Source: Rickettsiales bacterium
Lineage (GTDB): Bacteria > Pseudomonadota > Alphaproteobacteria > Rickettsiales > UBA3002
Length of the DNA stretch: 24,000 bases
Assembly (NCBI GenBank): GCA_049317085.1
Contig: JBMOIY010000019.1
Coordinates: 2,161-26,160, forward strand
Reading direction: 5' to 3'
Within the stretch, counting starts at the first letter, position 1. Each line of letters opens with the position of its first letter. This document shows positions 5,004 to 24,000 of this stretch, one piece after another. The translations under genes were made by a program, and so were the position numbers. Below the pieces are notes generated by a model. That model worked only from the letters and a program-made list of their open reading frames with translations, made no database searches and had not been told where the DNA came from.

Positions 5004-5006
5004 CCA

Positions 5007-5231: not shown

Positions 5232-5292
5232 TTTTCATGCAACGCGACATCGCAATCGTCGCCTGCTAATCCTCTAGAGTTGGAATTTTCGA

Positions 5293-6273: not shown

Positions 6274-6286
6274 GAAGGAGACAAAT

Positions 6287-6712: not shown

Positions 6713-6743
6713 TTCTATCGCTAATTTAACCAAGGAGAAACTT

Positions 6744-8806: not shown

Positions 8807-8807
8807 T

Positions 8808-9575: not shown

Positions 9576-9640
9576 AAAATGAGCAGTAATTATAGATAGT
9601 GTACTGATGCCATTTTCTGCTTCAGCGGGGGTGCTATCCA

Positions 9641-9949
9641 TCAATTCACCGTATTACCAAGGGCGAAGCAAACATTGAGGAAGGCATTGCTCTTGAACGC
9701 GATGATGCACGCGCACGCGATCACTTCCGCGAGCATGCGGTTGAAATTGAATATAGCCCCGCGGATTTTTGGAGCACTGGACTGGAATTCGTAGCCGAGC
9801 GAGAATCTGGTGAAACGGCGCCGATTCTTGAAACTATCCTCATTGCTTTTGGCAAGGTAGCTATCTGGGAACCCGCCACGTAGCCACATGCTTTTTATGG
9901 CCTTTTCATTGTTACCGATTTCCAAAACATTCAGCGGGCCGAGATCAAC
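9641..9949 (-). pseudogene. Truncated, decayed fragment of a DUF4143-type AAA ATPase gene
   Basis: The open frame VDLGPLNVLEIGNNEKAIKSMWLRGGFPDSYLAKSNEDSFKNRRRF... carries the L.PL...E.......WLRGGFP.S.LA hallmark of the central part of these roughly 400-aa ATPases. A TAG lies immediately upstream, so there is no AAA domain. The downstream part retains only faint similarity (..F..MLA....TV.) and stops early. Confidence 0.5.
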
Positions 9950-9981
9950 CTAGTATGGGTAGATTTTAGCGAAATGAATGC

Positions 9982-10102
9982 ATGCACAATCCACCGATAA
10001 GCATGTATGTTCAGGGCAAAAAATGCACAGGAAAGTCATTTTAGTGCACACAACTTACGATTTGATGCACAAATTTGACATTTTAATGCACGACCAAAAT
10101 GG
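9982..10102 (+). repeat. Five same-strand (A/G)TGCAC motifs; the last four are exactly 21 bp apart (DnaA-box-like or iteron-like array)
   Basis: ATGCAC at 9982, ATGCAC at 10023, GTGCAC at 10044, ATGCAC at 10065, ATGCAC at 10086. The 21-nt units are aaaaATGCACaggaaagtcat / tttaGTGCACacaacttacga / tttgATGCACaaatttgacat / tttaATGCACgaccaaaatgg. TGATGCACA matches the DnaA box TTATNCACA at 8 of 9 positions; the others match at 7 of 9. Confidence 0.6.
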
Positions 10103-10362
10103 CTCGCCGAAACGGTCAATCATGCATATTGATTAATATTAATGGGTTAATAGCGGGTCTTTCCCAGCAACCTTCTATACGGGGACGCCAGGCCCGCCAT
10201 TTAGCTAGATTCAGGATTTTTAAAAGCATTTCGTTTCATTTTTTATTTAACAACAAATTGATATTAAATGGAACTTCTGTTTTTTTTGGCGAAAAACGTT
10301 TCGTTTTCACTTCGTTCGGTATCTAAAACAGCAATCATCTGCCGGTTTCGTCTCACTTCAGG

Positions 10363-10518
10363 TTATGCCCGCGCAATCGCTGGCCACCCAAAATAGTTAT
10401 CGATATAGATTTTGCGCTGCTCAGGAAATTCGATGACAGCTGCTCTTTGCTCCGGTAAAGTTCGAAACGCGTCGATGACGGCGCGCCATTGACTCGAGTC
10501 CTTAAACGTCACATGCAT
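10363..10518 (-). CDS. Hypothetical small protein (51 aa if it starts at MHVTF...); possibly a gene remnant
   Basis: The track ORF 10363..10659 would overlap the divergent neighbour's start. The shorter form MHVTFKDSSQWRAVIDAFRTLPEQRAAVIEFPEQRKIYIDNYFGWPAIARA has GC-rich-half composition. The SD is weak and I recognise no family. Confidence 0.3.
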   Translation of the reverse strand: MHVTFKDSSQWRAVIDAFRTLPEQRAAVIEFPEQRKIYIDNYFGWPAIARA

Positions 10519-10642
10519 CGCTTGGGCGCGCTCGGTACACAACATCAGCCAGAATCTCAACCGTCCCCACCCCAATTCCCATTTCAAACTTGCTATTATA
10601 TACCCATCGCTTAATTTCCAACCATTAGCGATGGAGATACCA

Positions 10643-11239
10643 ATGAAGGCACAACACAACTCCAGGACGACCGATTTGGGTACTACACTCTATGACGGGT
10701 CCACCGGCTTTCAAGTCCGCAAGCGCAACGGCATCGGAATGTTTTTTCATGTCTTTGCCTTATGCTGCATGGTGCTGATGGGTGCCTCGTTGCTTGTCTA
10801 CTATCGCTCGCCTGAAGGTTGCGCCTTTGCAGTCGCCATCGGCCTCAGCTTCGCACTGATTGCACAGAACCTCGAGAAACAGAAAAAAAGCCGCGAATCG
10901 CTGGAATTCATGAACGCGCTGTTATCCTCGGCACTTGGCGCAGGCCACCGCTTCTGCTGCATCGTGAAGAATACCGGCGACATCATGTTCTATAACCGCC
11001 CGTTCCAGGAAGTCTTCCCGGAATACATCACCCAAGGCACCCACACGCTGGATGCATTATTCACTCTTTATAATGTGCCCCAAGCCGACCATAACGCCAT
11101 CACAGGCCTGATGGCCCCGAATCGCAGCGGCACAATCAACACCAGCATCCGCGCCGAAGGTTCCAACACACAGACCATCAGCATTATCCTCGAACCCATC
11201 GAGCGGCCGACCGGGTACTTCCTGCTGCGCGGCAAATAG
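10643..11239 (+). CDS. Membrane-anchored protein with a C-terminal PAS-like fold and no output domain
   Basis: ATG 10643 follows GGAGA plus 5 nt. Two hydrophobic helices (MFFHVFALCCMVLMGASLLVYY, AFAVAIGLSFALIAQ) precede ...FMNALLSSALGAGHRFCCIVKNTGDIMFYNRPFQEVFPEY...ISIILEPIERPTGYFLLRG, which reads like a PAS core. This is a by-eye call. Confidence 0.45.
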   Translation: MKAQHNSRTTDLGTTLYDGSTGFQVRKRNGIGMFFHVFALCCMVLMGASLLVYYRSPEGCAFAVAIGLSFALIAQNLEKQKKSRESLEFMNALLSSALGAGHRFCCIVKNTGDIMFYNRPFQEVFPEYITQGTHTLDALFTLYNVPQADHNAITGLMAPNRSGTINTSIRAEGSNTQTISIILEPIERPTGYFLLRGK

Positions 11240-11281
11240 CGCGTTGCATCAGGGCCTCGGCTGCTCTACACCCCGTCCCCT

Positions 11282-13144
11282 ATGGCTGGACGCGTCCTTT
11301 TAGCACTCGAAGATATTTTCCTCACGGTTGGCAACCGGCTGCTGTTCGCGGGGGTGAACCTGCATATCAATGAGGGCGACAAGATATGTTTGGTGGGCCG
11401 CAATGGCGCTGGCAAGACCACCCTCATGCGTTTGATCATGCAGGAACTGGAGACCGATTCGGGCAAACGCTTCCTTCTGCCCGGCACCCGCATCGGATAC
11501 CTCGCCCAACAGGTCGATTTCAACCCCAAACAACGTGTCCGCGATTTCGTGATGCACGGCTTTCCGAAGGATAAACGCACCGACGAGGTCGCCCACCGCG
11601 CTGATATGGTCACCACCCCGCTCGGCCTCGACGCGGATGCACCCATGGGCCATTTGAGCGGCGGCCAGCTACGCCGCGCCGCGCTCGCACAAGCCCTCGT
11701 CGATGAGCCCGATATTTTGTTACTGGATGAGCCGACGAACCATCTCGACCTCGAAGCCACCCTCTGGCTCGAGCAATTCCTCGCCCGCACGAGAAGCGCC
11801 ATCATATGCGTGTCGCACGACAGAGCCTTCCTGAACGCGTTCACCCATAGGGTTTTCTGGATCGACCACGGCACGGTGCGCAACTGTCCGGTGGGTTATG
11901 CGGATTTCGATGATTGGGCCGAGCAGATTCTAGAGCAGGAAGCCCGCACCCTCGCCAATATGCAGAAGAAGTTGGAACAGGAGCTGGACTGGACCCAAGG
12001 CGGCGTCACCGCCCGACGAAAACGCAACATGCGGCGGATGAACGAACTCCACCGCCTGCGCGACAAACTGAAAAAAGATAAGGCCGCCTATAACGCAAAG
12101 ATTCAAGCCATCGATATCGACCCGCTGCAGCCTACGCCTGCTTCAAAGATCGTCGCGGAGTTCAAAGGCGTCAGTAAAACCTTCGAGCGTGACGGCAAGA
12201 AAATCAAGATCCTCGATAACTTCTCCCGCCGCATCCTCAAGGGCGATCGCATCGGTATACTCGGTCGCAATGGCTCTGGCAAATCGACCTTACTCAAAAT
12301 GCTCATCGGTGAGCTGGAGCCGGATTCCGGACTTGTTTTTCGTTCCAAGAAAATTGACCTCGCCTATTTCGACCAACACCGCAGCGCGCTAGAGCCGAGC
12401 CAGACGTTATGGCGCACCCTCGCCCCAAACAGCGATTACGTCTATATCGGCAGCGGCGCAGAGCGTCGGCACAAACATGTCGCGGCTTACCTCAAGGATT
12501 TCCTGTTCGACCCCAAACGCGCGAAGGACGAGGTCGGCACCCTGAGTGGTGGCATGCAGAACCGACTGATGCTCGCCCGCACCCTCATCAACCCCGGCAA
12601 TTTGATGATCCTCGATGAGCCGACCAACGACCTCGACATGGACACGCTCGACATGCTGCAGGAAATTCTCGCCAGCTACCAGGGCACGCTCATCATCGTC
12701 AGTCATGACCGCGACTTTCTTGACCGCACGGTGACCGAAGTGCTGGCCTTCGAGGGCGACGCCCAGATCGACTCCTACATCGGCGGCTACAGTGATTACC
12801 TTGAAGCCAAGGAAGAAAAACTGCGCCTGAACAGCAAGAGAAAAAACGCCGCGACCAAGGCCGCCATCGCCCAAGTTGAAGCGGCAGCGCCTGCCGTTGA
12901 AATACTCAAGCCAGCTAGTAGCCTAAGCTTCACCGAACTCCACGAACTGAAAAAACTCCCCGCCACCATCGCCGCGCTGGAACAGGAACTGATACCGTTA
13001 AAGAAAACCCTGGAAGACGCAGAACTCTACACCCGCGACCCACAACTTTTCGACCGCACCCTGCGCTACCTTACCCGTACGCAGAAGAAGCTGGAGGATG
13101 CAGAGAGCAGGTGGCTTGAGCTGGAAAGCAAAACGGCGGGCTAG
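11282..13144 (+). CDS. uup: ABC-F family ATPase, Uup-like (two ABC domains plus a C-terminal coiled-coil domain)
   Basis: 620 aa. Walker A GRNGAGKTT and GRNGSGKST; signatures LSGGQLRRAALA and LSGGMQNRLMLA; Walker B ILLLDEPTNHLD and LMILDEPTNDLD. No TM segments. The C-terminal tail ...LEQELIPLKKTLEDAELYTRDPQLF....L.....KLEDAESRWLELE matches the Uup C-terminal domain. Confidence 0.85.
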   Translation: MAGRVLLALEDIFLTVGNRLLFAGVNLHINEGDKICLVGRNGAGKTTLMRLIMQELETDSGKRFLLPGTRIGYLAQQVDFNPKQRVRDFVMHGFPKDKRTDEVAHRADMVTTPLGLDADAPMGHLSGGQLRRAALAQALVDEPDILLLDEPTNHLDLEATLWLEQFLARTRSAIICVSHDRAFLNAFTHRVFWIDHGTVRNCPVGYADFDDWAEQILEQEARTLANMQKKLEQELDWTQGGVTARRKRNMRRMNELHRLRDKLKKDKAAYNAKIQAIDIDPLQPTPASKIVAEFKGVSKTFERDGKKIKILDNFSRRILKGDRIGILGRNGSGKSTLLKMLIGELEPDSGLVFRSKKIDLAYFDQHRSALEPSQTLWRTLAPNSDYVYIGSGAERRHKHVAAYLKDFLFDPKRAKDEVGTLSGGMQNRLMLARTLINPGNLMILDEPTNDLDMDTLDMLQEILASYQGTLIIVSHDRDFLDRTVTEVLAFEGDAQIDSYIGGYSDYLEAKEEKLRLNSKRKNAATKAAIAQVEAAAPAVEILKPASSLSFTELHELKKLPATIAALEQELIPLKKTLEDAELYTRDPQLFDRTLRYLTRTQKKLEDAESRWLELESKTAG

Positions 13145-13151
13145 CACAAAC

Positions 13152-13170
13152 GAAAATGGGAGCCATTTTC
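13152..13170. terminator. Hairpin between convergent genes (possible bidirectional terminator)
   Basis: GAAAATGG-gag-CCATTTTC: an 8-bp stem with a 3-nt loop, 8 nt after the uup-like stop and 35 nt from the convergent gene's stop. The stem is AT-rich and there is no clear U-tract. Confidence 0.3.
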
Positions 13171-13204
13171 ATGACCCCCATTATCATAGAATTAAAATAC
13201 CCTT

Positions 13205-13876
13205 TTAATAGGTCGGGGTACGATTCTGTTGCTTACGCGCATCCACACAATCCGGCGAACTATACTTTTCTGCCTCTGGCGTGCCGGTTTTGGGCTCTGT
13301 GTAGCAGACATTGGCATCTTTGAGAGCTTGGGCAGCCTTATCCGCTGCACTACTTGCTGCCGATCCAACAGCTGAACCAGCGGCTTTCGCTTTATTCCAA
13401 AGTGAACCAAATCCGCTCTCTTCTTGCGCTGCTGGAGTCGGCGCTGCAGCAGGTGCCGCCGCCGCGGGTGCAGCTGGCGCTTGAGAACCCGGTGTCGGTG
13501 CCTGTGGTGCTGGCGCCTGCTGCGGAGCCACACCCGTGCGCTGATCCAAAATCTTCAGTCCTTCCTCATTAATACGAAGGAAATGCGGGCGAACAGTATC
13601 GTTCAAGAACGCCTTACCGCGCAATTCCGGGTCATTGTCGAAAAACTCTTTGGCCTTTTGCATCTCACCTAAGCGCAGTGAACCATTGGGCTGGTTCTTA
13701 AGCGCACCAATCTTGATAAGCTGGAGTTCAATTTTAGCAATTTCAGGGGTACGCTTGCCCGACTCGATGGTAACAGCATTCGTAGCTTTGTCCGCACCAA
13801 AGCGAAGCACGTCGCCTAGTACACCAGCTTGCGCCAATAGTTCAGGTTTTAGTTCGGGTGTTTTGTTGTCAGCCAT
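13205..13876 (-). CDS. Hypothetical protein with a central Pro/Ala/Gln-rich linker (223 aa)
   Basis: ATG 13876 (MADNKTPELK...) follows AGGAGA plus 5 nt. Linker APQQAPAPQAPTPGSQAPAAPAAAAPAAAPTPAAQ. No signal peptide seen and no family recognised. Confidence 0.55.
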   Translation of the reverse strand: MADNKTPELKPELLAQAGVLGDVLRFGADKATNAVTIESGKRTPEIAKIELQLIKIGALKNQPNGSLRLGEMQKAKEFFDNDPELRGKAFLNDTVRPHFLRINEEGLKILDQRTGVAPQQAPAPQAPTPGSQAPAAPAAAAPAAAPTPAAQEESGFGSLWNKAKAAGSAVGSAASSAADKAAQALKDANVCYTEPKTGTPEAEKYSSPDCVDARKQQNRTPTY

Positions 13877-14031
13877 TCTCATCTCCTACAGTTGATTTTT
13901 CACGATTCACTACAGGTTCAGTATACTTAATAAAACCTTAAGAGTGCATGACAGTTTGAAGACAATAGGCTCGATCCACGCCGAAAATCATAGCGCGAGA
14001 AATAACTAAAAAAATAATTTAAATCAAGCGA

Positions 14032-14787
14032 TTATTCCCCAGACATCGTGGCCGGAATATCCCAGCTCAGATGGACATTGGCCGCCTTGTGCTTACTGTT
14101 GATGGTGAAATCCTGATGCTTCTTCATCTCACCCAGCGTGGCATCGAGGGCATACGACCCATCCACCAGCTTTACATAGAGCAGAGGCCCTGCCACCACG
14201 TTCAGCATCTCCTCGACATCCTTGCCGTTCTTGCGAGTGATGACCACCCGCGCATCGCCCACGAACGCCCCGGCTTTACTTGCGCTCATCACATACAGGT
14301 TATAATCCGGCTTCGCCGCCTGAATCGCCGCCTGCTCATCATCGCCGATGCCACCGGTAACATACGTCACCTCCGGGCTGCTATGGGCCTCATTCTTAGT
14401 CTCAATCAGCGGAATATCCTGTGGTTTAGCTTTCGCCAGCGGAGCAACAGGTTTCACCACCGGGGCTGGTGTAGCAGTAGGAGCCACAACGACCGGAGTC
14501 GGTGTAGCGACGGGAGCTGCATCTGGCTTCACCACCACAATGCGCGGCATTTCCACATCATTCGCCGCCGGAGGAATCACTTCAACAGTACCGCTGTCCG
14601 GTACAGGTGCTGAAGAGGCCTGCGCCATCACCATATCATCCGCGTTATGGTCTACCTCGCCCGTATCTACCCAAACTTCTTCCACCACCTTCTCATCCAG
14701 TTGGAATGTCGTGATAGGCCTGGCAGAAGCAGGCAACGCACCCGCGCCAGCAAAAGTGATGACCGCAGCAGTGACCAGACGTTTCAT
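14032..14787 (-). CDS. Secreted protein (251 aa): signal peptide, Pro/Thr/Val/Ala-rich linker, and a conserved C-terminal beta-rich domain
   Basis: Internal start MKRLVTAAVITFAGAGALPASA|RP has a Sec signal with an ASA cleavage motif. Linker PDAAPVATPTPVVVAPTATPAPVVKPVAPLAKAKP. The C-terminal block YVTGGIGDDEQAAIQAAKPDYNLYVMSASK.GAFVGDARVVI...GKDV......GPLLYVKL.DGSY resembles a widespread proteobacterial domain of unknown function (carboxypeptidase-regulatory-like), as I recall it. Confidence 0.6.
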   Translation of the reverse strand: MKRLVTAAVITFAGAGALPASARPITTFQLDEKVVEEVWVDTGEVDHNADDMVMAQASSAPVPDSGTVEVIPPAANDVEMPRIVVVKPDAAPVATPTPVVVAPTATPAPVVKPVAPLAKAKPQDIPLIETKNEAHSSPEVTYVTGGIGDDEQAAIQAAKPDYNLYVMSASKAGAFVGDARVVITRKNGKDVEEMLNVVAGPLLYVKLVDGSYALDATLGEMKKHQDFTINSKHKAANVHLSWDIPATMSGE

Positions 14788-14881
14788 AGCAAACTCCCTG
14801 AAAGGATAGGTAACATTAGCTACCACTATGCACCCGCGCCATGACCGCAGCAAGCAGCATCGACACAGCATCCACCACGAG

Positions 14882-16801
14882 TTAACGGCGGTAGCCTTCA
14901 AGATTCTGGTCAATGATATCCTTCACCAATTGCACCAATTTCGGCCCATACGGTGCGCCGTCCCACATTAAATGGTTATTCTTAAGGATTTGCTCGCTGA
15001 GCCCGCGCTTGTATTCGGCATCGTTGGCCAGCTTAACCGCCATCTCAGCGTATTCATTCAAATTCTTGGCTTCGGGTGCATCCGCGATACCCATGAGGGA
15101 ATAATAGGAATGTACAACCCGGCCACGCGCATACTCCCCCGGCATGGTTACAATCGGCAGCCCGAAGCCAAATGCATACTGCGCGGTGGTGCCGCCCCCG
15201 AAATAGATGGTATCGAGAATTGCATCAGACGCTTTGAGGACGCTAAGCAGGATTTCAAGCGGCTGCCAGCCGAAGAAGATGATTCGTGACTCATCACATT
15301 TCGCAAAGATACGTTTTTGAAGGATGTCGCTGGCGGCTTGCTGGCTGAAATCATTGAACAGCAGCAGCACCGCCTTTGGATCCTTCGAGAGGATATTACT
15401 CAGCACCCCATCGAAATCCGGGTGGAATTTCTGGATGGCCATCGGGCAGACATAGATGTTCTTGTCGTCCGGCAGGGTCATCTCCTCCCGCGTCAGCCAG
15501 CGCTTTGGCGCTTGTGGACGGGTGAACACGGTATCGATGCCTGCCGTGCATAACAGCCGCTCGGTATAATTCTCATCCGCCTGCGGCGGCTCGTAGGAGC
15601 GCGAAGAAATGACGTAATCAATCGTGTCGATACCGGTCGTCTCGGGATGCCCCTGGAAACAAGCCTGATGAGGTGCCAGCCGTGCCATGGCCAGCAGATG
15701 AGTCATCGGGTCCATCCCGATATCGGGATAGATAATGAGATCGAGCCTCTCATTTGCAATCATAGTCTGTGCTGCCGACACGTTATTCGGCAGTGAATGG
15801 ATTGGGATGGCCGCCGCATGGATGGTCTGTATTTTCTCATCCACGATATTGCCGATGCTGAACAGCATTACTGAAAATTCCGGCTGCGATGCCAGATGGA
15901 TCATCGCCCCGCGATAGCAATTCCCGACCGAATGGTTATGCATATAGCGCGACACGAACCCGATACGGATCTTTTCATCCGGCTGGCGCACAGGCTTCAC
16001 TTTGCAATGCGCCGCCGTGAAATTGATGGCCGGCTTACCGACAATGCGCAACATTTGCGCATAAAGTTTCACTAGCTCCTTGTTGTCGCGGTTATGGAAC
16101 GCGAGGCTGAAGACAGGATTGTTGCTCAGCAATGCTTCCTGACTGACCTGGGGCTTTTCAGCGATAAAGCGTTCTAGCGACGCCTTGAAATTTGCCCGCC
16201 CAGCATCGATCTCTTCCGAAGACAGATTGATACGCGGCAAATGGGTTTCATATTGAATCCGGAAACTCGCTGGCACCCGGAATTTGGATGTCAATGTACG
16301 ATAGGCAGCATCTGCTTCCGCGAACCGGTTATTAAGCTTGAGCGAAAGACAGTAAAATTTCTCCAGATCCATTGCATTCGGGAACCGCGGCAGGATATCT
16401 TCTAGATACGACGGCACCAGATGCGCCTGATTGAAGCGAATGAGCATGCCCATCAACGCCGCGTGGGCATCAGGATTTTCCGGCAGCACCTGCGTGGCCC
16501 GATGCGCTAGGCGCACCGCTTCCGTGCCATTGTTCTGGGCTTCGAGCAATTGGCAGAACAGTAGGTAAGTATCGATATTGTTCGGATCGATCTGCAGAGC
16601 GCGCTGATAATTATCCGCTGCCAGCATGTAATTTCCCGCGCTATGTGCGATGAACCCAAGCTTATGTAGCGCCTCAGCATGGTTTGGGTTCATCTGCAAC
16701 ACCTGCTGCAGCACATCCACCGCTTCCTGCACACGGTTCTTCGCCAGCGCGCTTTCGGCGATCTTCATCATTTTGCGAACGGGGGGGACAACCTGATTCA
16801 T
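14882..16801 (-). CDS. TPR-repeat + GT41-family glycosyltransferase (O-GlcNAc-transferase/SPINDLY-like; the architecture of Caulobacter FlmG)
   Basis: 639 aa. N-terminal TPRs (AEALHKLGFIAHSAGNYMLAADNYQRALQIDPNN...). The C-terminal blocks LDLIIYPDIGMDPMTHLLAMARLAPHQACFQGHPETTGIDTIDYVISS and LDTIYFGGGTTAQYAFGFGLPIVTMPGEYARGRVVHSYYSLMGI...AKNLNEYAEMAVKLANDAEY track the human OGT catalytic-domain blocks (LDT....G.TT....G.P.VTMPGE...RV..S.....AKN..EY...AVKL..D.EY) as I recall them. ATGA overlap with the upstream aminotransferase gene. Confidence 0.85.
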   Translation of the reverse strand: MNQVVPPVRKMMKIAESALAKNRVQEAVDVLQQVLQMNPNHAEALHKLGFIAHSAGNYMLAADNYQRALQIDPNNIDTYLLFCQLLEAQNNGTEAVRLAHRATQVLPENPDAHAALMGMLIRFNQAHLVPSYLEDILPRFPNAMDLEKFYCLSLKLNNRFAEADAAYRTLTSKFRVPASFRIQYETHLPRINLSSEEIDAGRANFKASLERFIAEKPQVSQEALLSNNPVFSLAFHNRDNKELVKLYAQMLRIVGKPAINFTAAHCKVKPVRQPDEKIRIGFVSRYMHNHSVGNCYRGAMIHLASQPEFSVMLFSIGNIVDEKIQTIHAAAIPIHSLPNNVSAAQTMIANERLDLIIYPDIGMDPMTHLLAMARLAPHQACFQGHPETTGIDTIDYVISSRSYEPPQADENYTERLLCTAGIDTVFTRPQAPKRWLTREEMTLPDDKNIYVCPMAIQKFHPDFDGVLSNILSKDPKAVLLLFNDFSQQAASDILQKRIFAKCDESRIIFFGWQPLEILLSVLKASDAILDTIYFGGGTTAQYAFGFGLPIVTMPGEYARGRVVHSYYSLMGIADAPEAKNLNEYAEMAVKLANDAEYKRGLSEQILKNNHLMWDGAPYGPKLVQLVKDIIDQNLEGYRR

Positions 16802-17964
16802 GCATTCTCCAAATTCGTCAATACTTCATCGAGCGACGCCGCAACCATGAGCAAATGCTTAGGCGGAATATCAACATAAAACGGCAGCGACACGATGGAT
16901 TCGCCCAACTGCTTGGTGACCGACAGATCTCCCCGCGGATAATTTGCGTAGGCCGGTTGCGTGTGGCAGCCCTTGTCCCACCATTGCCGCGCCTTGATGC
17001 CGCGCACCTGCAATTGCGAGATCACCCGATCCGCCATCGTTGTAGGCAGGCGAATATTACAGGTCGTCGTCACCGCATCGTCCGGGAACCACAGCAGCAG
17101 GTTATGTTTTTCTGTAACCGGAGCTAATGAGCGCTTATAGGTCTCGGTGATCTCCAGCCACTGTGCCCGCCGGTTCGGCCAGATATCGAGCGCTGCCAGC
17201 CCCACCGCACAGCCATATTCGCTGATTTTCGAGTTGATGCCAGGAATCGAGATGCGCCGCGTGTAATAGCCGAAATTGGTCTGCTCCTGCACATGCCGAA
17301 TCAGACCCGTATCGCGCGAGATGACCACCGCCCCCTCGCCGATACCGAGCACCTTGGTCGCATGCATGCTAAACACGACTGCCGTTCTGCCGAACTTCAC
17401 ATTGCGAAAGCTATCGAACCCTGATGCGGCATCGACAACCACCGGAATAGAGGTATCCGCCGTGAATTTATCCCATGCCTGGATATCGATTGGTTTGCCG
17501 AACGGCGCCGCCACCAGCACCGCGCCGATGACCCCGTTGATTTTGGTGATCTGCTTCTTCACCGCCTCCGGATCCAGTGCCCATGTCGCATCGTCACAAT
17601 CGATGAAATACGGGGTCATCTCCGCTGCGATAGCCGAAGCGGGTGTTGCAACAAACGTCCATGACGGAACAAGGCAATAGCTATCTTTAGGCAGATTCAA
17701 TGCCCTGAGTGTAGCGATCAGGCCCGAAGTAGCACTGGATGCAGTCACCGCACATTCCGTGGTGACCCCAAAATGCTCCGCCAACCGCCCACGGAATTCC
17801 TGCTCCAACGGGCCGAAATTCGTATACCAGCGCGCCGCATCGATACGTTTCAGGTACGGCAAAATATCCGCCGTCTCCGGCAGCATTGGCTTCAGCAGCT
17901 CGACCGTCTCGAACAGCTCTGGCACTGTGTTTTCGGCTGGTTTTGTCATCGCCTGCACCTGCAT
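16798..17964 (-). CDS. DegT/DnrJ/EryC1/StrS-family PLP-dependent sugar aminotransferase
   Basis: N-terminal ...ILPYLKRIDAARWYTNFGPLEQEFRGRLAEHFG and the PLP-lysine block VVFSMHATKVLGIGEGAVVIS are family signatures. The ATG at 17964 follows GAGGGA plus 4 nt; the track start, TTG 17976, sits inside that SD. Confidence 0.85.
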   Translation of the reverse strand: MQVQAMTKPAENTVPELFETVELLKPMLPETADILPYLKRIDAARWYTNFGPLEQEFRGRLAEHFGVTTECAVTASSATSGLIATLRALNLPKDSYCLVPSWTFVATPASAIAAEMTPYFIDCDDATWALDPEAVKKQITKINGVIGAVLVAAPFGKPIDIQAWDKFTADTSIPVVVDAASGFDSFRNVKFGRTAVVFSMHATKVLGIGEGAVVISRDTGLIRHVQEQTNFGYYTRRISIPGINSKISEYGCAVGLAALDIWPNRRAQWLEITETYKRSLAPVTEKHNLLLWFPDDAVTTTCNIRLPTTMADRVISQLQVRGIKARQWWDKGCHTQPAYANYPRGDLSVTKQLGESIVSLPFYVDIPPKHLLMVAASLDEVLTNLENA

Positions 17965-18036
17965 GATTTCCCTCAACTAACTCGACAATGTACGGTTAGG
18001 CAAGGGTTAAGCAAGGCTTGTGCCAATAGGAGGCAC

Positions 18037-18846
18037 TTATTTCCAGTAATCCACGAATTTCTCGGCAAAAATATACTGGTACATCGAGTCTCGGTTCATC
18101 GCATTCGCTTTCTCGATAATGGGCCGAATGATCGAAGCTGGCTGCTTGGACCACAGCCACAGCCGCGACGCCACGTTATACACCGAGCACTGGTAACCGT
18201 TCTGCTCGAACAGCAACTGCATCGACCGGTTAGTGAAGAACGAACAATGCACCGACAGCAGATAGAACCAATCCGGGTTCTGTGGCACATGTTCGGCCAC
18301 CAGCGTATGCAGGATCATCACCCCTTCATCACTCACAAGATCAAAGATGCCATCGAGCTGCGAACGGAACCGCAAATGCTCCATCACCGCGGTATGCGTG
18401 ACCAGGCTGAAGGCCTTCGGCTTCAACTCCCCCGCCTGCAAATACCCTTGCGCCGGGTTGCTGCTATGTTCGTATTTTTCGACCTTGAGCCCGTGGTCTA
18501 CCGCGAGCGCATTGACTAATTTGCCATCCCCCGCACCATAATCCAGCCAGCGGCCTTTGGGCAACAAACCTAAGTTCGCGCAATCACCAATAATCGCCGA
18601 CTGCGCCACGAACCGCTCCAGCCAGCGCGGATCTTCGGGGTTATCGTCCGTCCCCTGATAGAGCGACACCCACTGGTTATTCAACGTCTCCCACTCAGCA
18701 TCCGTCATCTCGTAATGCGTGCGCGAGAACACAAAACCACAGCCGTCGCACTTATCATAATACACGTCGCCGAGGTTGAATTGCTCGAAATGCTTCTGCA
18801 TGAACGGCTGCGTCGCACTGGCGCAGATAATGCATGGGATTGACAA
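18037..18846 (-). CDS. Class I SAM-dependent methyltransferase with an N-terminal CxxC...CxxC zinc ribbon
   Basis: 269 aa. Motif I is WLDYGAGDGKL. The N-terminus CIIC...(26 residues)...CDGCGFVF resembles the zinc-binding N-domain of NDP-sugar C-methyltransferases (Methyltransf_13-like). The TTG start at 18846 has GGAG plus 6 nt and is needed to include the first CxxC. Confidence 0.75.
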   Translation of the reverse strand: MSIPCIICASATQPFMQKHFEQFNLGDVYYDKCDGCGFVFSRTHYEMTDAEWETLNNQWVSLYQGTDDNPEDPRWLERFVAQSAIIGDCANLGLLPKGRWLDYGAGDGKLVNALAVDHGLKVEKYEHSSNPAQGYLQAGELKPKAFSLVTHTAVMEHLRFRSQLDGIFDLVSDEGVMILHTLVAEHVPQNPDWFYLLSVHCSFFTNRSMQLLFEQNGYQCSVYNVASRLWLWSKQPASIIRPIIEKANAMNRDSMYQYIFAEKFVDYWK

Positions 18847-18919
18847 AACAAACTCCGATTCTTACGGTTTTACCATTCGCGATACGCTAGCATGGCATCC
18901 ATAGAAAGGCCAGCACCTG

Positions 18920-20662
18920 ATGAAGTTCACCGCCCTCGAATTGCTCGAGACCTATGTATCGAGCGCCGAAACACACAGCGTTGCGCTAGGCGACTATGCG
19001 CCCGGGATCCATTGCACCAACCACGCTTTCTTCAAGAAAGAAGCAGACGGCTCTATTCCCTGGGTAGTGAGCCGCTCCTGCGACCATGCGGGCGGCAAAT
19101 TGCGCTTCTGCGATGGCGACAGCAGCAAAGCCATCTGCCCGTTACATAACTGGGAGTTCGATTTTAATAACCTCAGCTACACAAAAATCCCTAACCAGAC
19201 ATTTGAACATATCACCAAGAACTCATTGCCCTTCTCGGTCAAAGGCAATACCCTCACCTACGAAACCGAGCAGTTGAACCTGCGCGTCCCATCGTCTATC
19301 CCTCAGCCTAAAACCCCGATTGAAGTCGAGCTGCGCTTTATCACCCACGCTTCGGTAATGCTGGAACTGAACGGGCTGAAACTGCTGACTGACCCGTGGT
19401 ATGTCGGCGAATGCCTTGCTGGTGGCTGGTGGCTGAAGCAGCCCCCCAAAGCCGACGCGTGGGAATTGCTGAAAAGCGCAGACCTGCTCTACATCTCTCA
19501 CAACCACCCTGACCACTTGCACACCGAAACCCTCGCCCATGCCCACCGCGACATCCCCATCATCGTCCCGAAATTCGATACAGATTCCGTGACCACCCCC
19601 CTACGTGACCTCGGTTTCACCAACATTCACGAACTCGAACTCAAACGGCTCTACCGCGTCAACAACAGCGAACTGCTCATCAGCATCCTACCGACAGGCG
19701 ACCACCGAGACGATAGCGGCCTGTTCGTCGTACAAGGCGATTTCTCAGCCGTACTCACCGTCGATTGCGTCGGCACCAATCAATACGTGCTGCCGCAGGA
19801 TATAAGCATCCTTCTCACCAACTTCGCCTCCGGCGCCTCTGGCTGGCCGCTTTGCTACGAAGTCGTGGGTTCGCTCGACGAACGCGCGAAGATCGTCACC
19901 AAGAACCGCGGCAACGCCGTACTCGAGGTCATGAAATATATCGCCGCTACCAAACCGCGCGTTTATATGCCCTATGCCGGGTTCTTCGACGAACGCGCCC
20001 CCCGCGACCACACAATCAAAACCTATAACGTAAAAAATTCCTCCGCGAGCATTGTCGAAAAAGTCACCGCGAAATTCCCGATGGTGCAGGCTATCGACCC
20101 ACTACTCCATGACCGCATCCACTGGAAAAACGGCGAAGCGATGGTGAGCAACATCGACCAGCCACCGCTATTCACCTATGACGCGACTACCATCACCCAC
20201 TATCTCGATGCCCAGCGCAAGATGCTCAAGAAATTCGACATCGAAAAAATCGCTGAATATTTCAGCCAGTCCGAATTCAAGGACGACCTCATCGTCTACC
20301 TTGCGCTGACCGATGACGATTACACCCCAACCGGCCCCAGCTTGCGCATCGATTTCTCGACTACACCGATCACCCATAAAGTCATCGACGGCCCTACACT
20401 GCTCGCGCAATTCAACGCCCTCACCGAACTGAATGGCAAGCACCACCTCCTCATCAAAGCCCGCACCGACAGCCTCTGGCGCCTCGTCCATGAAGGCCGC
20501 CCGCTCGAGGAACTCACGTTGGGCTTCCAATGCCGCATCGACCGCAAGCCCGACCAGTACAGTGCCGCCTTCTGGCAGCATTACACCACCCACGGCGCCC
20601 CCATGCTGAAACGCGGTGAAGACAGGCTGCTCTATAAACTGCTCGAAGGCAGCGATGGCTGA
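18920..20662 (+). CDS. Rieske [2Fe-2S] + metallo-beta-lactamase-fold oxygenase, CMP-N-acetylneuraminate hydroxylase (CMAH)-like
   Basis: 580 aa. Rieske motif C54-D-H-(16 residues)-C73-P-L-H76 at 19079-19147. MBL motif H-N-H-P-D-H at 19499-19516. Many blocks shared with vertebrate CMAH as I recall it are listed in the first finding. Divergent from the methyltransferase operon across a 73-bp gap. Confidence 0.8.
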   Translation: MKFTALELLETYVSSAETHSVALGDYAPGIHCTNHAFFKKEADGSIPWVVSRSCDHAGGKLRFCDGDSSKAICPLHNWEFDFNNLSYTKIPNQTFEHITKNSLPFSVKGNTLTYETEQLNLRVPSSIPQPKTPIEVELRFITHASVMLELNGLKLLTDPWYVGECLAGGWWLKQPPKADAWELLKSADLLYISHNHPDHLHTETLAHAHRDIPIIVPKFDTDSVTTPLRDLGFTNIHELELKRLYRVNNSELLISILPTGDHRDDSGLFVVQGDFSAVLTVDCVGTNQYVLPQDISILLTNFASGASGWPLCYEVVGSLDERAKIVTKNRGNAVLEVMKYIAATKPRVYMPYAGFFDERAPRDHTIKTYNVKNSSASIVEKVTAKFPMVQAIDPLLHDRIHWKNGEAMVSNIDQPPLFTYDATTITHYLDAQRKMLKKFDIEKIAEYFSQSEFKDDLIVYLALTDDDYTPTGPSLRIDFSTTPITHKVIDGPTLLAQFNALTELNGKHHLLIKARTDSLWRLVHEGRPLEELTLGFQCRIDRKPDQYSAAFWQHYTTHGAPMLKRGEDRLLYKLLEGSDG

Positions 20663-20814
20663 AAAATCAATAGCTTGTCACAATCACACCCCCTTAGATG
20701 GAATAGCCCCTAAATAAATTGTGTATGTGTAAAAGAATGTGTAAAAATGGCCCACTTTAAAAAAAAGGGGCGGATGGTACCTTTTGGGGTCAAAAAATTA
20801 GAGTAGCCCCAACC

Positions 20815-21177
20815 TCAGACTGCACCGGGTTGAATCAGTACCCCAGCGGGAATACCAAGTCCGGCATGCAGCTTGCGAATCATCGGTAACGTCAATTCAC
20901 GTCGATGATTAAGCACCTCTGATACGCGCGCACGACTGCCAATGTAGGGCTCCATATCACGGCGCGAAAGGCCCTGCTGATCCATCGTAAATAAAATCGC
21001 CTCTACGGGATCTGGCGCTTGGATGGTATGATGTTTTTCTTCCCACGCAACAACCAGCGTCGAGAGTATATCCAAACGGTCACCTTGTGGCGAATTCGGG
21101 GCCGCATTCATCAATCCATCAATTTCTTGAAGGGCGCGTTTGTAGTCCTGTGCGGTTTTAATTGGTCGAATGTCCAT
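20815..21177 (-). CDS. higA: HigA-family antitoxin (XRE-type HTH)
   Basis: 120 aa. ...IKTAQDYKRALQEIDGLM......GDRLDILSTLVVAWEEKH..I...DPVEAILFTMDQQGLSRRDMEPYIGSRARVSEVLNHRRELTLPMIRKL is the typical HigA pattern. It lies 2 nt downstream of the higB stop. Confidence 0.85.
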   Translation of the reverse strand: MDIRPIKTAQDYKRALQEIDGLMNAAPNSPQGDRLDILSTLVVAWEEKHHTIQAPDPVEAILFTMDQQGLSRRDMEPYIGSRARVSEVLNHRRELTLPMIRKLHAGLGIPAGVLIQPGAV

Positions 21178-21179
21178 AC

Positions 21180-21479
21180 CTATATCTCCGTTACTTCGAT
21201 TGCGTCATAGTGCCGGTGTGTGCCGATAAAGCGGATATAGAGTACCCCGTAGGGGTAATTTATCTTGGCCACCAACCGATACTTATTACCTGCAATGTTA
21301 AACACCACACGGTTATCGCCGACGATACTTGCGCTACCTAAGGCCTTCTTTACTTCTGACGGCTTTGCCCAGTCAGCTTCCTCTGCTAATTTGAACCATG
21401 CCTTCAAAGGCTGTTCCGCATCGGCATAAGCAGGCTTTTCCCAAAAGTCGCGCAGTGTCTTACGGGCGATAATCCTCAT
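21180..21479 (-). CDS. higB: HigB-family type II toxin (mRNA interferase)
   Basis: 99 aa. MRIIARKTLRDFWEKPAYADAEQPLKAWFKLAEEADWAKPSEVKKALGSASIVGDNRVVFNIAGNKYRLVAKINYPYGVLYIRFIGTHRHYD matches the HigB_toxin (PF09907-like) pattern. The toxin-first gene order is typical of higBA. Confidence 0.85.
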   Translation of the reverse strand: MRIIARKTLRDFWEKPAYADAEQPLKAWFKLAEEADWAKPSEVKKALGSASIVGDNRVVFNIAGNKYRLVAKINYPYGVLYIRFIGTHRHYDAIEVTEI

Positions 21480-21496
21480 ACTCTTGTCCTTAGCAT

Positions 21497-21541
21497 GTTC
21501 CCGTTATGGGAGCAACCTTAAAATGATCCCATAGCGGGAAC
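21497..21541. promoter_or_regulatory. Imperfect 15-bp inverted repeat upstream of higB (candidate HigA/HigBA operator)
   Basis: GTTCCCGTTATGGGA (21497-21511), then 15 nt, then TCCCATAGCGGGAAC (21527-21541). The arms are reverse complements with one mismatch. The repeat begins 18-62 nt upstream of the higB start codon. Confidence 0.5.
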
Positions 21542-21838
21542 AATTTAAGTTTTCTTTATTTCCAATAGATAGCGACTATATCCTTAACTGCCAAACTCGC
21601 CGTACATCGGGCCGTCGCTCCGACCACAAAATGCTCAATCAACTTATCCTGGATGCTCTTGCTTAATCGACTCTTGCGCATGCTGTTCCGTAACACAAAA
21701 TGCGTTATCTGGTACAGCCCCTTCTATTATTTCCAACAGTTGCCGCAAAGCGTCCCGCCAGTGTCCCATGAGCTACAATCAGCCACTTCGGCAAACCGCC
21801 AAATCATCTATAATCTATTGATATATAATGGAAAGAAA

Positions 21839-21977: not shown

Positions 21978-22030
21978 GCGCGGCGTGTGTGAGGGGGAAG
22001 ATTTTGCGGTGGAGGGCGGATTCGCCAGGG

Positions 22031-22225
22031 TTACTGGTCTTCGGGCGAGCCATTCAACAGCGCTTCGGCGGCGGCTAAGCTCTCATCGTCCACATCGTCG
22101 AGTTCCACCGCTGGCACGGCGTAGGAGCCGGTGAACCATTTGTTGAGGTCGACCTGCCGGCAGCGCTCGGAGCAGAAGGGCTTATGCTCGGGCTTGGTGG
22201 GCTTGAAACAGACCGGACACGTCAT
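22031..22225 (-). CDS. yacG: DNA gyrase inhibitor YacG (zinc-ribbon protein)
   Basis: 64 aa. MTCPVCFKPTKPEHKPFCSERCRQVDLNKWF..SY.VP is the CPxC...FCSxRCxxxDLxxW YacG signature. ATGA overlap with the upstream trhO-like gene. Confidence 0.85.
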   Translation of the reverse strand: MTCPVCFKPTKPEHKPFCSERCRQVDLNKWFTGSYAVPAVELDDVDDESLAAAEALLNGSPEDQ

Positions 22226-22956
22226 CTCGCAGCCTCCAGCATCGGCAACAATGCATGGCCGACGGCTACCCGCTCATCGAACACGAAGCAACTGCCCCGC
22301 CACAGCGAATCAGCGGTCGGAACCTGCTCCAGATACGCAAGGATGCCGCCATGCAAATGATGCACGTCCTTGAAGCCAAGCGCGACGAGGTACGACGAAT
22401 ATTTCTCACAGCGAATCCCGCCCGTACAATACATCGCGACACTGGTGTTGGCGCTGACGCTGAGGTTCTGCGCCGTCCATGCCACCATCTGCTTGAAGTT
22501 GCGCGTCGCCGGGTTCACCGCGCCCTCGAAATGCCCCATCACGTATTCATAATCGTTGCGCGTATCGATGGTGATGACATCCGCCCGGGTGATGAGCGCG
22601 TTCCAGTCCTTCGGCGCCACATAACTGCCCACGCATTGCGCCGGGAAGGTGGGCACGCCCATCGAGATCAGCTCGCGCTTCACTTTCACCTTGCTACGCT
22701 TGAACGGCTGCGCGCCGAAATAACTTTCGCGGAAGGTCGGCGTGGTAAAGGCGATGCGCGATTGCAGGAACGCCATCAAGGATTCAATTGCATCGGTCGC
22801 GCCCGAGATGGTCGCGTTGATGCCCTCACTGGCTAGCGTGATCGTGCCGCGAATACCGAGCGCCTGCATGCGTTCCAATATCGGGGCGCGCAACGCTTTC
22901 GGGTCAGCAAGGCCGACGAAGCTATAGAAGGTGGAAATGGTCAGAGGCGCGCTCAT
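22222..22956 (-). CDS. trhO: Rhodanese-domain protein of the UPF0176/YceA family (tRNA uridine(34) hydroxylase TrhO)
   Basis: 244 aa. ...TFYSFV.L.....LRAPILERMQALGIRGTITLASEGINATISG... then IDTRNDYEY..GHFEGAVNP......F and the active-site loop MYCTGGIRCEK. Confidence 0.8.
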   Translation of the reverse strand: MSAPLTISTFYSFVGLADPKALRAPILERMQALGIRGTITLASEGINATISGATDAIESLMAFLQSRIAFTTPTFRESYFGAQPFKRSKVKVKRELISMGVPTFPAQCVGSYVAPKDWNALITRADVITIDTRNDYEYVMGHFEGAVNPATRNFKQMVAWTAQNLSVSANTSVAMYCTGGIRCEKYSSYLVALGFKDVHHLHGGILAYLEQVPTADSLWRGSCFVFDERVAVGHALLPMLEAAR

Positions 22957-22989
22957 GGCGCGGGTCGTAGCAAAAATCGTTGGGAATGT

Positions 22990-23997
22990 CTAGAGCGTGG
23001 CGTGCGCAGCCACTTCCGGCACCACACGAGAGACTTGTGTGGCCGCATGGATCTGCTGGCCCGGCGCTGGCACTTCCGGCGAAACGGGCGCTGCCGCAGC
23101 AACCGGGCTGGCGGGAGGCATGTTCGCCGCCATCTGCCTCAACCGCTCGATGCGTGTCTCGGTCGAGGGGTAACCGGACTGGATTTTGCGGTACAGTTTG
23201 TACAAGCTAGGACGTCCGCGGCCCTCCTCCAGCTTGCCGAGAGCCAAAATCAAGCCCTCCGGGTCACCCGAGATCATGGCGCCTTTGCGGTCAGCGTCCA
23301 GTTCCGTCGGCCGCACGCTCACCTGGTTCGCCGCAATCAACCCGAGGCTACCACCCACCAACATATAGATCACGGAATCCAGCGGCGAGAGATGTTTCCC
23401 CCCCTTACCCGTGATGAATTGCAATACCTTCTTGAGACGACCCGTCTCCATTTTATCATAAGGAATATAAGCGCCGATACCGCCGCGATGCGCCATGCGA
23501 TCTGCCGCGATCACCGCACCACCACCGAGCAATCCAATCGCCAAGGCCCGCGATTTCGTATGATTGCTTACTTCATGCCCAAGCTCATGCCCCAGCACCG
23601 CCCGCACCTCACGCAGATCGAGGCGCTTGAGCAGCCCGGTCGTCAGCACGACCGCATTCTCATGGGTCAGCGACGCCGCATTCATCATCGGGCTTTCCGC
23701 AAGAATCAGCTGCGGCACGCGCGTGTGGCCTGCCCGCTGGCAGAGCGTCCGCCATTCCTGATGCAGTTCCGGATGCGTCTGCGCGGTGATTTCCTTACCG
23801 CGTTTCATACCCATCTTGCCAAGCTCGCTCAGCAGATGCATATCGAGGTCGCCATTGCCCATCGGCACCCGCGGAATGAAGCGTGGGTCGATATTCGGGC
23901 TGCTGGCAAGCCCATAATCCCCTGAAAAATCCCGGTGACCGAACATGCCACTCAGTTTTTCCCACGCCGAGGACACAGCATCCTGCACCGCGCTCAT
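22990..23997 (-). CDS. M48-family zinc metallopeptidase (HtpX-like)
   Basis: 335 aa. HELGHEVSNH (HExxH) is followed by two hydrophobic segments (LAIGLLGGGAVIAA, VIYMLVGGSLGLIAA) and ...ELDADRKGA. The first ATG is only 3 nt from the right edge with no upstream stop visible, so the true start may lie outside the window. Confidence 0.7.
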   Translation of the reverse strand: MSAVQDAVSSAWEKLSGMFGHRDFSGDYGLASSPNIDPRFIPRVPMGNGDLDMHLLSELGKMGMKRGKEITAQTHPELHQEWRTLCQRAGHTRVPQLILAESPMMNAASLTHENAVVLTTGLLKRLDLREVRAVLGHELGHEVSNHTKSRALAIGLLGGGAVIAADRMAHRGGIGAYIPYDKMETGRLKKVLQFITGKGGKHLSPLDSVIYMLVGGSLGLIAANQVSVRPTELDADRKGAMISGDPEGLILALGKLEEGRGRPSLYKLYRKIQSGYPSTETRIERLRQMAANMPPASPVAAAAPVSPEVPAPGQQIHAATQVSRVVPEVAAHATL

Positions 23998-24000
23998 AAA

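Follow-up and report, generated by a model that had tools for sequence, protein, structure and literature searches.

What is a hydroxylase of the CMAH type doing next to a predicted protein glycosyltransferase in a bacterium, which sugar is made there, and what receives it? These questions are raised by four neighboring genes at positions 14882-20662 of a 24,000-nt stretch of DNA (the window) from an uncultured freshwater alphaproteobacterium. The open reading frames (ORFs), re-found where an earlier note on this DNA had placed them, encode a protein with tetratricopeptide repeats (TPR) and a GT41 glycosyltransferase domain, a DegT-family aminotransferase, a zinc-ribbon methyltransferase that we call MT23, and a CMAH-like hydroxylase. 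Gene content and family membership, like the linkage and neighborhood counts given below, are direct observations. From them we arrive at a reading to which we give an even chance, in which the four genes would constitute a cytoplasmic sugar-tailoring and protein-glycosylation cassette, namely, a nucleoside diphosphate (NDP)-4-amino-4,6-dideoxyhexose system with a hydroxylase/methyltransferase add-on.

Two samples of loci were examined, fifteen distinct loci of the GT41 orthogroup and nine loci of the hydroxylase clade, and neighborhoods were searched over the genes within 10 kb of each locus. A DegT orthologue stands directly upstream of the GT41 gene in all fifteen of the former, and MT23 lies divergently upstream of the hydroxylase gene in all nine of the latter. 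For at least 15 of the approximately 26 hydroxylase-clade proteins, the longest contig is equal in size to that of an MT23-clade protein, an indirect sign of shared contigs. MT23 is present at 7 of the 15 GT41 loci and the hydroxylase at 6, the contig of locus L087 stopping inside MT23. The full run hydroxylase-MT23-DegT-GT41 is found in six of the nine clade loci (the window, L001, L006, L086, L134/L135, and L136), and L087 probably carries the same adjacency. Order and orientation are the same in at least six independent contigs, at GT41 identities of 49 to 61% and in several chromosomal settings, and the proteins of these contigs are 49 to 73% identical to those of the window. As gene order recurs at such identities, the linkage is real and more than chance. 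The earlier note had named a lack of conserved linkage of the four genes as grounds for refuting its proposal; in the six loci listed, they are linked.

In the linked loci, MT23 is the first gene of an MT23-DegT-GT41 string, to which a 358-aa Methyltransf_24 gene is added in L001, L006, L134, and L136, and in L136 a VioB/PglD-family acetyltransferase gene as well. Other loci hold parts of the run. L002 has the hydroxylase/MT23 pair alone, the contig of L004 stops at MT23, and L003 has MT23, an O-acetyltransferase-like gene, and a distant TPR-GT41 gene. The hexapeptide protein of L003 was considered as VioB-type, an assignment that was dropped, as it resembles an O-acetyltransferase (WbbJ/WcaF-like). 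At L083, L088, and L137, synteny with L001 includes pseudouridine synthase, MTS methyltransferase, and Methyltransf_32 genes, but no MT23/hydroxylase pair stands between the synthase and DegT genes, so that the pair behaves as an insertable two-gene cassette. In a neighbor-joining tree of GT41 proteins, loci with and without the pair are interleaved, and the most basal, L136 (49.5% identical to the window), has it, implying that the association has persisted, or been gained again, at all depths of the orthogroup. Judged by gene order, the cassette is thus two separable units: unit A, DegT plus TPR-GT41, is the core, and unit B, MT23 plus the hydroxylase, is a portable add-on. In L001 (2922-4838) and L083 (11892-13751), a conserved 619- to 638-aa protein with no Pfam or NCBIfam match is encoded between a second DegT gene and the GT41 gene; the 638-aa conserved protein of these loci has no counterpart in the window.

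A related arrangement occurs in Nostoc sphaeroides (L132), where an MT23 homologue of 45% identity is flanked by a classical Rieske/Ring_hydroxyl_A oxygenase gene and DegT. On such neighborhoods, the hydroxylase-methyltransferase partnership appears to be a general one that recurs with non-orthologous parts. The order in this cluster (CP045226.1; 3153-16852) is ketoacyl synthase (KAS) III, acyl carrier protein, KAS III, ketoreductase, hexapeptide acyltransferase, and Rieske/Ring_hydroxyl_A oxygenase, followed by the MT23 homologue, DegT, GT2, GT4 plus Methyltransf_24, and then a protein of >1,600 aa with GT4 domains, TPR, and GT41.

The hydroxylase has an N-terminal Rieske domain followed by Lactamase_B_3. 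Its Rieske ligands (C54-x-H56 ... C73-P-x-H76) and metal motif (H194-N-H-P-D-H199) are invariant across 16 diverse homologues, and the metallo-beta-lactamase-fold domain, with ligands H194/H196/D198/H199 (HxHxDH), is a probable diiron domain. In PDB searches by sequence and by fold, the diiron beta-hydroxylases CmlA and FrsH rank first (predicted local distance difference test [pLDDT] of the model, 85). CMAH is the animal enzyme that makes the sialic acid Neu5Gc and acts on CMP-Neu5Ac. A putative mouse CMAH sequence is colinear with hydroxylase residues 54 to 555 at 29% identity (E 6e-50), and many homologues of the hydroxylase bear the JGI/NCBI label CMP-N-acetylneuraminate monooxygenase. NamH, a UDP-MurNAc hydroxylase, likewise combines a Rieske domain with a beta-lactamase-fold domain (PMC10050696). 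For prokaryotes, CMAH homologues are on record just as BLAST hits (PMC5767959), and the literature searched held no functional study of the bacterial ones.

A one-genome-per-species scan yielded 79 hydroxylase loci, and further loci came from metagenome-protein look-ups. The window clade is tight, with about 26 proteins at 56 to 73% identity and nine distinct loci. The other 66 loci lie at 30 to 46% identity; when their neighbors were clustered and annotated, a CMP-sialate-synthetase-type cytidylyltransferase was found at 25, NeuB at 22, a hydrolyzing UDP-GlcNAc 2-epimerase at 22, and a small S-adenosylmethionine (SAM) methyltransferase at 16. Among the nearest 14 outgroup loci (38 to 42% identity), 13 have a CMP-sialate synthetase gene and 11 have neuA, neuB, and neuC together, whereas none of the nine window-clade loci has neuA, neuB, or neuC. 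This discrepancy sets the window clade apart as a diverged branch no longer found in a sialic-acid context. Substitutions fixed in the clade cluster in the conserved ILKSGDFRDDSG loop, which there reads ILPTGDHRDDSG. The wider CMAH-like family (L009-L074; e.g., L036 2324-4531 and L041 9281-11680) is embedded in neuA/neuB/neuC clusters of Bacteroidota, Alpha- and Gammaproteobacteria, Helicobacter, Pelagibacteraceae, and Prochlorococcus.

Methyltransferases also accompany the hydroxylases of sialic-acid-type loci. In 13 of the 16 loci having a small methyltransferase gene, it lies no more than about 15 nt from the hydroxylase gene or overlaps it, on the upstream or the downstream side depending on the phylum, and ten gammaproteobacterial hydroxylase loci have a Methyltransf_11 gene 2.1 kb away. 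The presence of hydroxylases and small methyltransferases in neu clusters suggests that bacteria make N-glycolyl, perhaps O-methylated, sialic acids. We considered the small methyltransferase as a specific relative of MT23 and dropped the idea, as hhalign finds a shared generic SAM core only (88% probability); the pairings of the two with hydroxylases are therefore analogous, not orthologous.

The only Pfam match of MT23 is PF13489 Methyltransf_23. Four cysteines (CxxC...CxxC at residues 5/8/33/36) are nearly invariant in its family, and the SAM motif reads LDYGxGDGK. In a Foldseek search of the PDB with the AlphaFold model (pLDDT 92), the top 17 matches are all dTDP-sugar C-3'-methyltransferases (TcaB9, KijD1, and MtmC), with E values of 1e-9 to 6e-8 and query TM-scores (TMq) of 0.55 to 0.59; the next match is at 1e-5. 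According to this model, MT23 is folded like the dTDP-sugar C-methyltransferases. A further homologue, 37% identical, is encoded in L133 (8001-8834) within a nonulosonate-type island that also holds a PglD-like acetyltransferase, two LuxC/LuxE pairs, an MptE-like (Maf-type) protein, and radical SAM enzymes, so the MT23 family is not confined to deoxyhexose clusters.

The DegT protein covers profile positions 5 to 359 of 360 of PF01041 DegT_DnrJ_EryC1 (196 bits), and its pyridoxal phosphate (PLP) lysine lies in the family-typical motif FSMHATKVLGIGEGA (pattern SxHxxK...GEG; SMHATK...GEGA in translation). Its best NCBIfam model is DesI at 148 bits (cut-off, 650), followed by PseC at 109 (423.5) and LegC at 104 (420), an order that lends no support to a nonulosonate framing. 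The best PDB match is 3ju7 (uncharacterized; 1.9e-53), followed by DesI (2po3).

The neighbors of DegT-GT41 suggest which sugar may be involved. L001 encodes RmlA (402 bits; cut-off, 361), and homologous nucleotidyltransferases are encoded in L083, L085, L088, and L137. L084 has a CDP-glucose pair, the cytidylyltransferase at 295 bits (cut-off, 300) and the 4,6-dehydratase at 369 (cut-off, 278), with an RmlC-like epimerase, and N-acetyltransferases of the NeuD/PglB/VioB family are found in L084 (182 bits) and L136 (222 bits; cut-off, 161). Further neighbors are a full TcaB9-type C-methyltransferase (PF08421/PF08484), an architecture of which MT23, ending at residue 269, lacks the C-terminal part, as well as TylF- and CmcI-type methyltransferases, a PhyH-type oxygenase, and, in five loci, WbqC. 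In contrast to the nonulosonate, pseudaminic-type pathway that the earlier note had in mind, in which a synthase and a CMP-transferase would be expected, no NeuB/PseI, CMP-transferase (CTP_transf_3), or PseB-type gene was found within 10 kb in the 15 GT41-orthogroup and nine hydroxylase-clade loci, and deoxyhexose genes recur instead. Based on these neighbors, the DesI-best DegT, the MT23 fold, and the NDP-type donor residues of GT41, we regard a dTDP- or CDP-derived NDP-4-amino-4,6-dideoxyhexose with variable N-acylation, methylation, and hydroxylation as the most likely sugar, in preference to pseudaminic, legionaminic, or neuraminic acid.

In the glycosyltransferase, TPR Pfam families extend over residues ~11 to 120, and PF13844 Glyco_transf_41 scores 77.5 bits (cut-off, 25). 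Its PDB sequence matches are human OGT (hOGT), SPINDLY, XcOGT, and HMW1C/NGT (3q3e and 8j30); the C-terminal 412 aa alone reach hOGT at E 4e-23, and the TPR part matches the OGT TPR structure 1w3b. By alignment, H290, K458, and T538/T539 are the equivalents of hOGT His498, Lys842, and Thr921/922, while the His920 equivalent is Gly; within the orthogroup, H290, K458, and T539 are invariant and T538 is nearly so. These hOGT residues (His498, Lys842, Thr921/Thr922) are donor binding or catalytic, and Lys842 and Thr921/922 contact the donor diphosphate in OGT. The orthogroup comprises ~75 proteins of ~636 aa at 44 to 64% identity, beyond which identity falls to ~31%. The NGT model NF049992 gives 60.9 bits, far under its cut-off of 1000, and tblastn against a plasmid collection returned merely generic TPR-GT41 proteins of ~30% identity. 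To our knowledge, every characterized GT41 enzyme, including OGT, SPINDLY, and NGT, modifies proteins. From its family and residues, the window enzyme is probably the terminal transferase and is predicted to act on protein.

As for the acceptor, the GT41 enzymes characterized so far modify proteins, and it is the TPR domain that binds the acceptor in OGT (PMC3012730), as in the TPR plus GT-B enzyme FlmG (PMC7591256). The earlier claim that the module decorates a protein is plausible, given the characterized GT41 enzymes, the TPR domain, and the kept OGT donor residues. Its FlmG-like, flagellin-directed framing finds no such backing: no flagellin was detected within 10 kb in the 15 orthogroup loci with a FliC N-terminal probe, a weak test, and the sole match to the probe is in L052, an unrelated sialic-acid-type locus. 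Where a candidate exists in cis, it is a TpsA exoprotein. In L136 (1-4251), the MT23-DegT-GT41-Methyltransf_24-acetyltransferase string runs straight into a >1,400-aa TPS-domain exoprotein. In L091 (3-4889, 14676-19403), a 1,628-aa TpsA with a TPS domain and 12 DUF5650 repeats heads a same-strand series of WbqC, two GH32N-like genes, a methyltransferase, DegT, and GT41; this locus also encodes a 1,575-aa RTX protein. A precedent is HMW1C, a GT41 enzyme whose cytoplasmic target is the TpsA adhesin HMW1 (PMC3012730, PMC3983070). The TpsA exoprotein is probably the acceptor in L091 and L136. A candidate in the window itself was rejected: the Pro/Ala/Thr-rich, putatively secreted ORF directly downstream of GT41 (14032-14913, minus strand) has no counterpart in any related locus. 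Translation from an internal Met (MKRLVTAAVITFAGAGALPASA) would give this ORF a plausible signal peptide; it and a second one (13205-13882, minus strand) have Pro/Ala/Thr-rich linkers, no Pfam match, and no counterpart in related loci.

From these observations we infer a route, with its sugar, hydroxylase substrate, order of tailoring steps, and acceptor, along the following lines. An NDP-4-keto-6-deoxyhexose would be made elsewhere from dTDP- or CDP-glucose and aminated by DegT to the NDP-4-amino-4,6-dideoxyhexose. The hydroxylase would oxidize a methyl group on the nucleotide sugar, the likeliest target, by analogy with CMAH and NamH, being an N-acetyl group that becomes N-glycolyl. MT23 would methylate the new hydroxyl or else install a methyl group that the hydroxylase then oxidizes; the order would thus be either N-acetyl to N-glycolyl to O-methyl-glycolyl or methylation first, with the new methyl then hydroxylated. 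Most simply, methyl oxidation and methyl transfer would be consecutive steps on one nucleotide sugar. GT41 would then pick its protein acceptor, encoded outside the window, through the TPR domain and transfer the finished sugar.

Several observations weigh against this route. The whole case rests on sequence and genomic context from uncultured organisms. The window itself lacks a VioB-type N-acetyltransferase, RmlA/RmlB, Methyltransf_24, WbqC, and TpsA, and no ferredoxin or reductase partner for the Rieske center was seen in it. An N-acetyl target is not assured, because a VioB-type acetyltransferase is present in cis in just one unit-B locus (L136), nor is the DegT substrate fixed, because its scores are far under the DesI, PseC, and LegC cut-offs. 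The sugar-binding domain at the C terminus of TcaB9-type enzymes is missing from MT23, whose TM-scores are just 0.55 to 0.59. TpsA is adjacent in merely 2 of the 15 loci, which is suggestive, not decisive. Because unit B also occurs with no unit A nearby (L002), it may serve another substrate.

That last point leads to an improbable alternative in which units A and B are mere neighbors and the hydroxylase/MT23 pair acts on CMP-sialic acid made elsewhere, UDP-MurNAc, or a non-sugar metabolite. Unit B does occur by itself in L002, surrounded by housekeeping genes, 8 of the 15 loci have unit A only, and the closest PDB relatives of the hydroxylase catalytic domain use carrier-bound amino acids rather than sugars as substrates. 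However, adjacency, order, and orientation are kept in at least six contigs at GT41 identities of 49 to 61% and in several chromosomal settings; MT23 heads the MT23-DegT-GT41 string and has an NDP-sugar methyltransferase fold, and the Nostoc cluster sets an oxygenase, an MT23 homologue, and DegT side by side. A role in polysaccharide synthesis, with the cassette serving O-antigen, capsule, or another surface glycan and the TPR domain mediating assembly contacts, is also rather unlikely. It would fit the Wzy_C (L084), MOP flippase and LptF/LptG (L134), GT2, and WbqC (five loci) neighbors found beside some loci and the O-antigen-cluster kind of the tailoring genes, but it is at odds with the action of all characterized GT41 enzymes on proteins, with the minimal unit of L137, in which DegT-GT41 and RmlA occur with no flippase, polymerase, or initiating transferase, and with the TpsA genes in the same string at two loci.

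The least probable alternative is that flagellin is decorated with a nonulosonic acid, as by FlmG, DegT being PseC/LegC-type and the hydroxylase a true CMP-nonulosonate N-acetyl hydroxylase. FlmG, itself a TPR plus GT-B protein, modifies flagellin with pseudaminic or legionaminic acid (PMC7591256; bioRxiv 10.1101/2022.03.25.485807), linkage to neuABC is genuine in the wider hydroxylase family, DegT does score for PseC and LegC (109 and 104 bits), an MT23 homologue sits in the nonulosonate/Maf-type island of L133, and MotA/MotB genes in L002 show that there are flagellated relatives. Against these stand the lack of NeuB/PseI, CTP_transf_3, PseB-type, and flagellin genes within 10 kb in the two sets of loci, where RmlA, CDP-glucose, VioB, and deoxysugar-methyltransferase genes recur instead, and the resemblance of MT23 to dTDP-sugar methyltransferases. 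The GT41 donor-site residues, moreover, fit NDP (diphosphate) sugars, whereas nonulosonates are CMP activated.

An extended form of the NDP-4-amino-4,6-dideoxyhexose reading is unlikely to hold in every part. In it, the window clade would add a third substrate class to the CMAH/NamH nucleotide-sugar hydroxylases, having been recruited anew out of sialic-acid clusters: an NDP-4-acetamido-4,6-dideoxyhexose would be converted to its N-glycolyl form, O-methylated to N-methoxyacetyl by MT23 as an obligate partner, and put by TPR-GT41 on secreted TpsA-type adhesins. If true, neither the donor sugar nor the enzyme combination of this bacterial protein-glycosylation system would have been described before. 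The parts all come from known families; what appears to be new is their combination and the redeployment of a CMAH-type hydroxylase outside sialic-acid metabolism, neither of which was described in the literature searched. We found nothing there on bacterial CMAH function or on a GT41 plus aminotransferase system beyond HMW1C, FlmG, and NamH. Bacterial TPR-GT41 proteins are common, with donors and acceptors mostly undefined, and this orthogroup offers a testable case with a fixed DegT partner, few candidate donors, and TpsA candidates in two loci. Bacterial CMAH homologues have hitherto been a phylogenetic curiosity (PMC5767959); the majority lie within neuABC clusters, next to a methyltransferase gene, and one clade has moved to a deoxyamino-sugar/GT41 setting. 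Two questions thereby become testable: whether N-glycolyl (or methoxyacetyl) sugars are made by bacteria, and what determines substrate range in the hydroxylase family.

Coordinates of the cassette in the window
Feature	Position	Strand	Details
TPR + GT41 glycosyltransferase	14882..16801	-	639 aa; ORF + Pfam
DegT/DnrJ/EryC1-family PLP aminotransferase	16798..17964	-	388 aa from ATG 17964; alternative TTG 17976 (first in-frame)
Zinc-ribbon class I SAM methyltransferase, MT23	18037..18846	-	269 aa, TTG start
Divergent intergenic spacer MT23/hydroxylase	18847..18919		73 bp
CMAH/NamH-type hydroxylase, Rieske + metallo-beta-lactamase-fold	18920..20662	+	580 aa

The DegT gene ends and the GT41 gene starts within a shared ATGA, read directly in the sequence, and the two genes would be translationally coupled. 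For DegT, the ATG start is better than the TTG because it has GAGG 5 to 6 nt upstream and matches the orthologue N termini (MQAQAM...); it leaves a 72-nt gap after the MT23 stop. The MT23/hydroxylase spacer is 71 to 79 bp across seven orthologous loci, the TTG start of MT23 is conserved, and purine-rich blocks resembling ribosome-binding sites face both directions, with CTCC (GGAG on the minus strand) for MT23 and GAAAGG before the hydroxylase ATG. A scan with the sigma-70 consensus found no promoter in 18847-18919, and over 13000-21600 it gave no more sites than shuffled sequence, so that divergent promoters are a supposition only; a terminator scan was likewise no better than shuffled sequence. 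The earlier description of three minus-strand genes packed as an operon is borne out in its ATGA overlap, 72-nt gap, and 73-bp spacer, and the four family assignments agree with the Pfam/NCBIfam domains and ligand motifs.

Proteins identical to the hydroxylase, GT41, and MT23 of the window are recorded from a contig of an NCBI Rickettsiales metagenome-assembled genome, although a look-up with the exact hydroxylase sequence returned nothing. The remainder of the window is unrelated, with housekeeping genes, a HigB/HTH toxin-antitoxin pair, and TrhO. The pair (20815-21479, minus strand), a HigB-type toxin (PF09907, 3.8e-31) and an HTH_3 antitoxin-like gene, comes immediately after the hydroxylase gene, and a phage-type integrase lies near the same cassette in L134. 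The differing chromosomal places of the cassette between genomes hint at mobility. A 259-aa single-domain Ion_trans protein (8796-9575, plus strand), also matching PKD_channel, resembles a NaChBac-type bacterial voltage-gated cation channel, and its gene overlaps the end of a sodium:dicarboxylate symporter gene. GC content is patchy, with 56 to 61% at 11001-13000 and 22001-24000, 45 to 52% at 5001-11000, and 53 to 56% in the cassette region, and GC skew is negative across most of the second half of the window.

Comparison with known systems places the cassette between several of them. Viosamine/anthrose-type protein glycosylation occurs on Pseudomonas and Burkholderia flagellins and on Bacillus anthracis BclA. 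In these pathways, a DegT enzyme converts NDP-4-keto-6-deoxyglucose to a 4-amino-4,6-dideoxyhexose that is N-acylated, methylated, and put onto protein, much as proposed here, and a VioB-family acetyltransferase is present in L084 and L136. Their acceptor is a flagellin or an exosporium protein, and we know of no such system with a CMAH-like hydroxylase. MT23, for its part, begins with a zinc ribbon of four Cys and continues with a class I SAM domain, as do TcaB9, KijD1, and MtmC, which lead other folds by an E-value margin of three orders of magnitude; it differs from them in having 269 rather than ~405 aa and no C-terminal domain PF08484, and identity is 12 to 15%.

HMW1C/NGT of Haemophilus and Actinobacillus and the window protein share a GT41 catalytic domain, and both are cytoplasmic, NDP-sugar-dependent protein glycosyltransferases, the window protein by prediction; the TpsA gene in the same string at L091 and L136 extends the likeness. 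HMW1C has no N-terminal TPR domain (PMC3012730), whereas the window protein has TPR. The window-type donor is probably a tailored 4-amino-4,6-dideoxyhexose rather than UDP-Glc/UDP-Gal, and the window orthogroup, unlike HMW1C/NGT, is always coupled to DegT. FlmG, as described (PMC7591256), resembles the window protein in its N-terminal TPR and C-terminal GT-B, its length of about 600 to 640 aa, its alphaproteobacterial host, and a DegT-family enzyme in the pathway. However, FlmG of Caulobacter and Brevundimonas uses CMP-pseudaminic or CMP-legionaminic acid and needs PseI/LegI; no such genes are near the window orthologues, the neighbors of which are dTDP-/CDP-hexose genes. Finally, the window hydroxylase has the same Rieske and metallo-beta-lactamase-fold domains as CMAH and NamH, with all metal-ligand motifs kept, and its sister clades sit in neuABC clusters. 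In contrast, the window clade is ~40% identical to these neuABC-linked bacterial relatives and never beside sialic-acid genes, and, unlike in CMAH and NamH, its hydroxylase is always paired with a zinc-ribbon methyltransferase and usually adjoins DegT-GT41.

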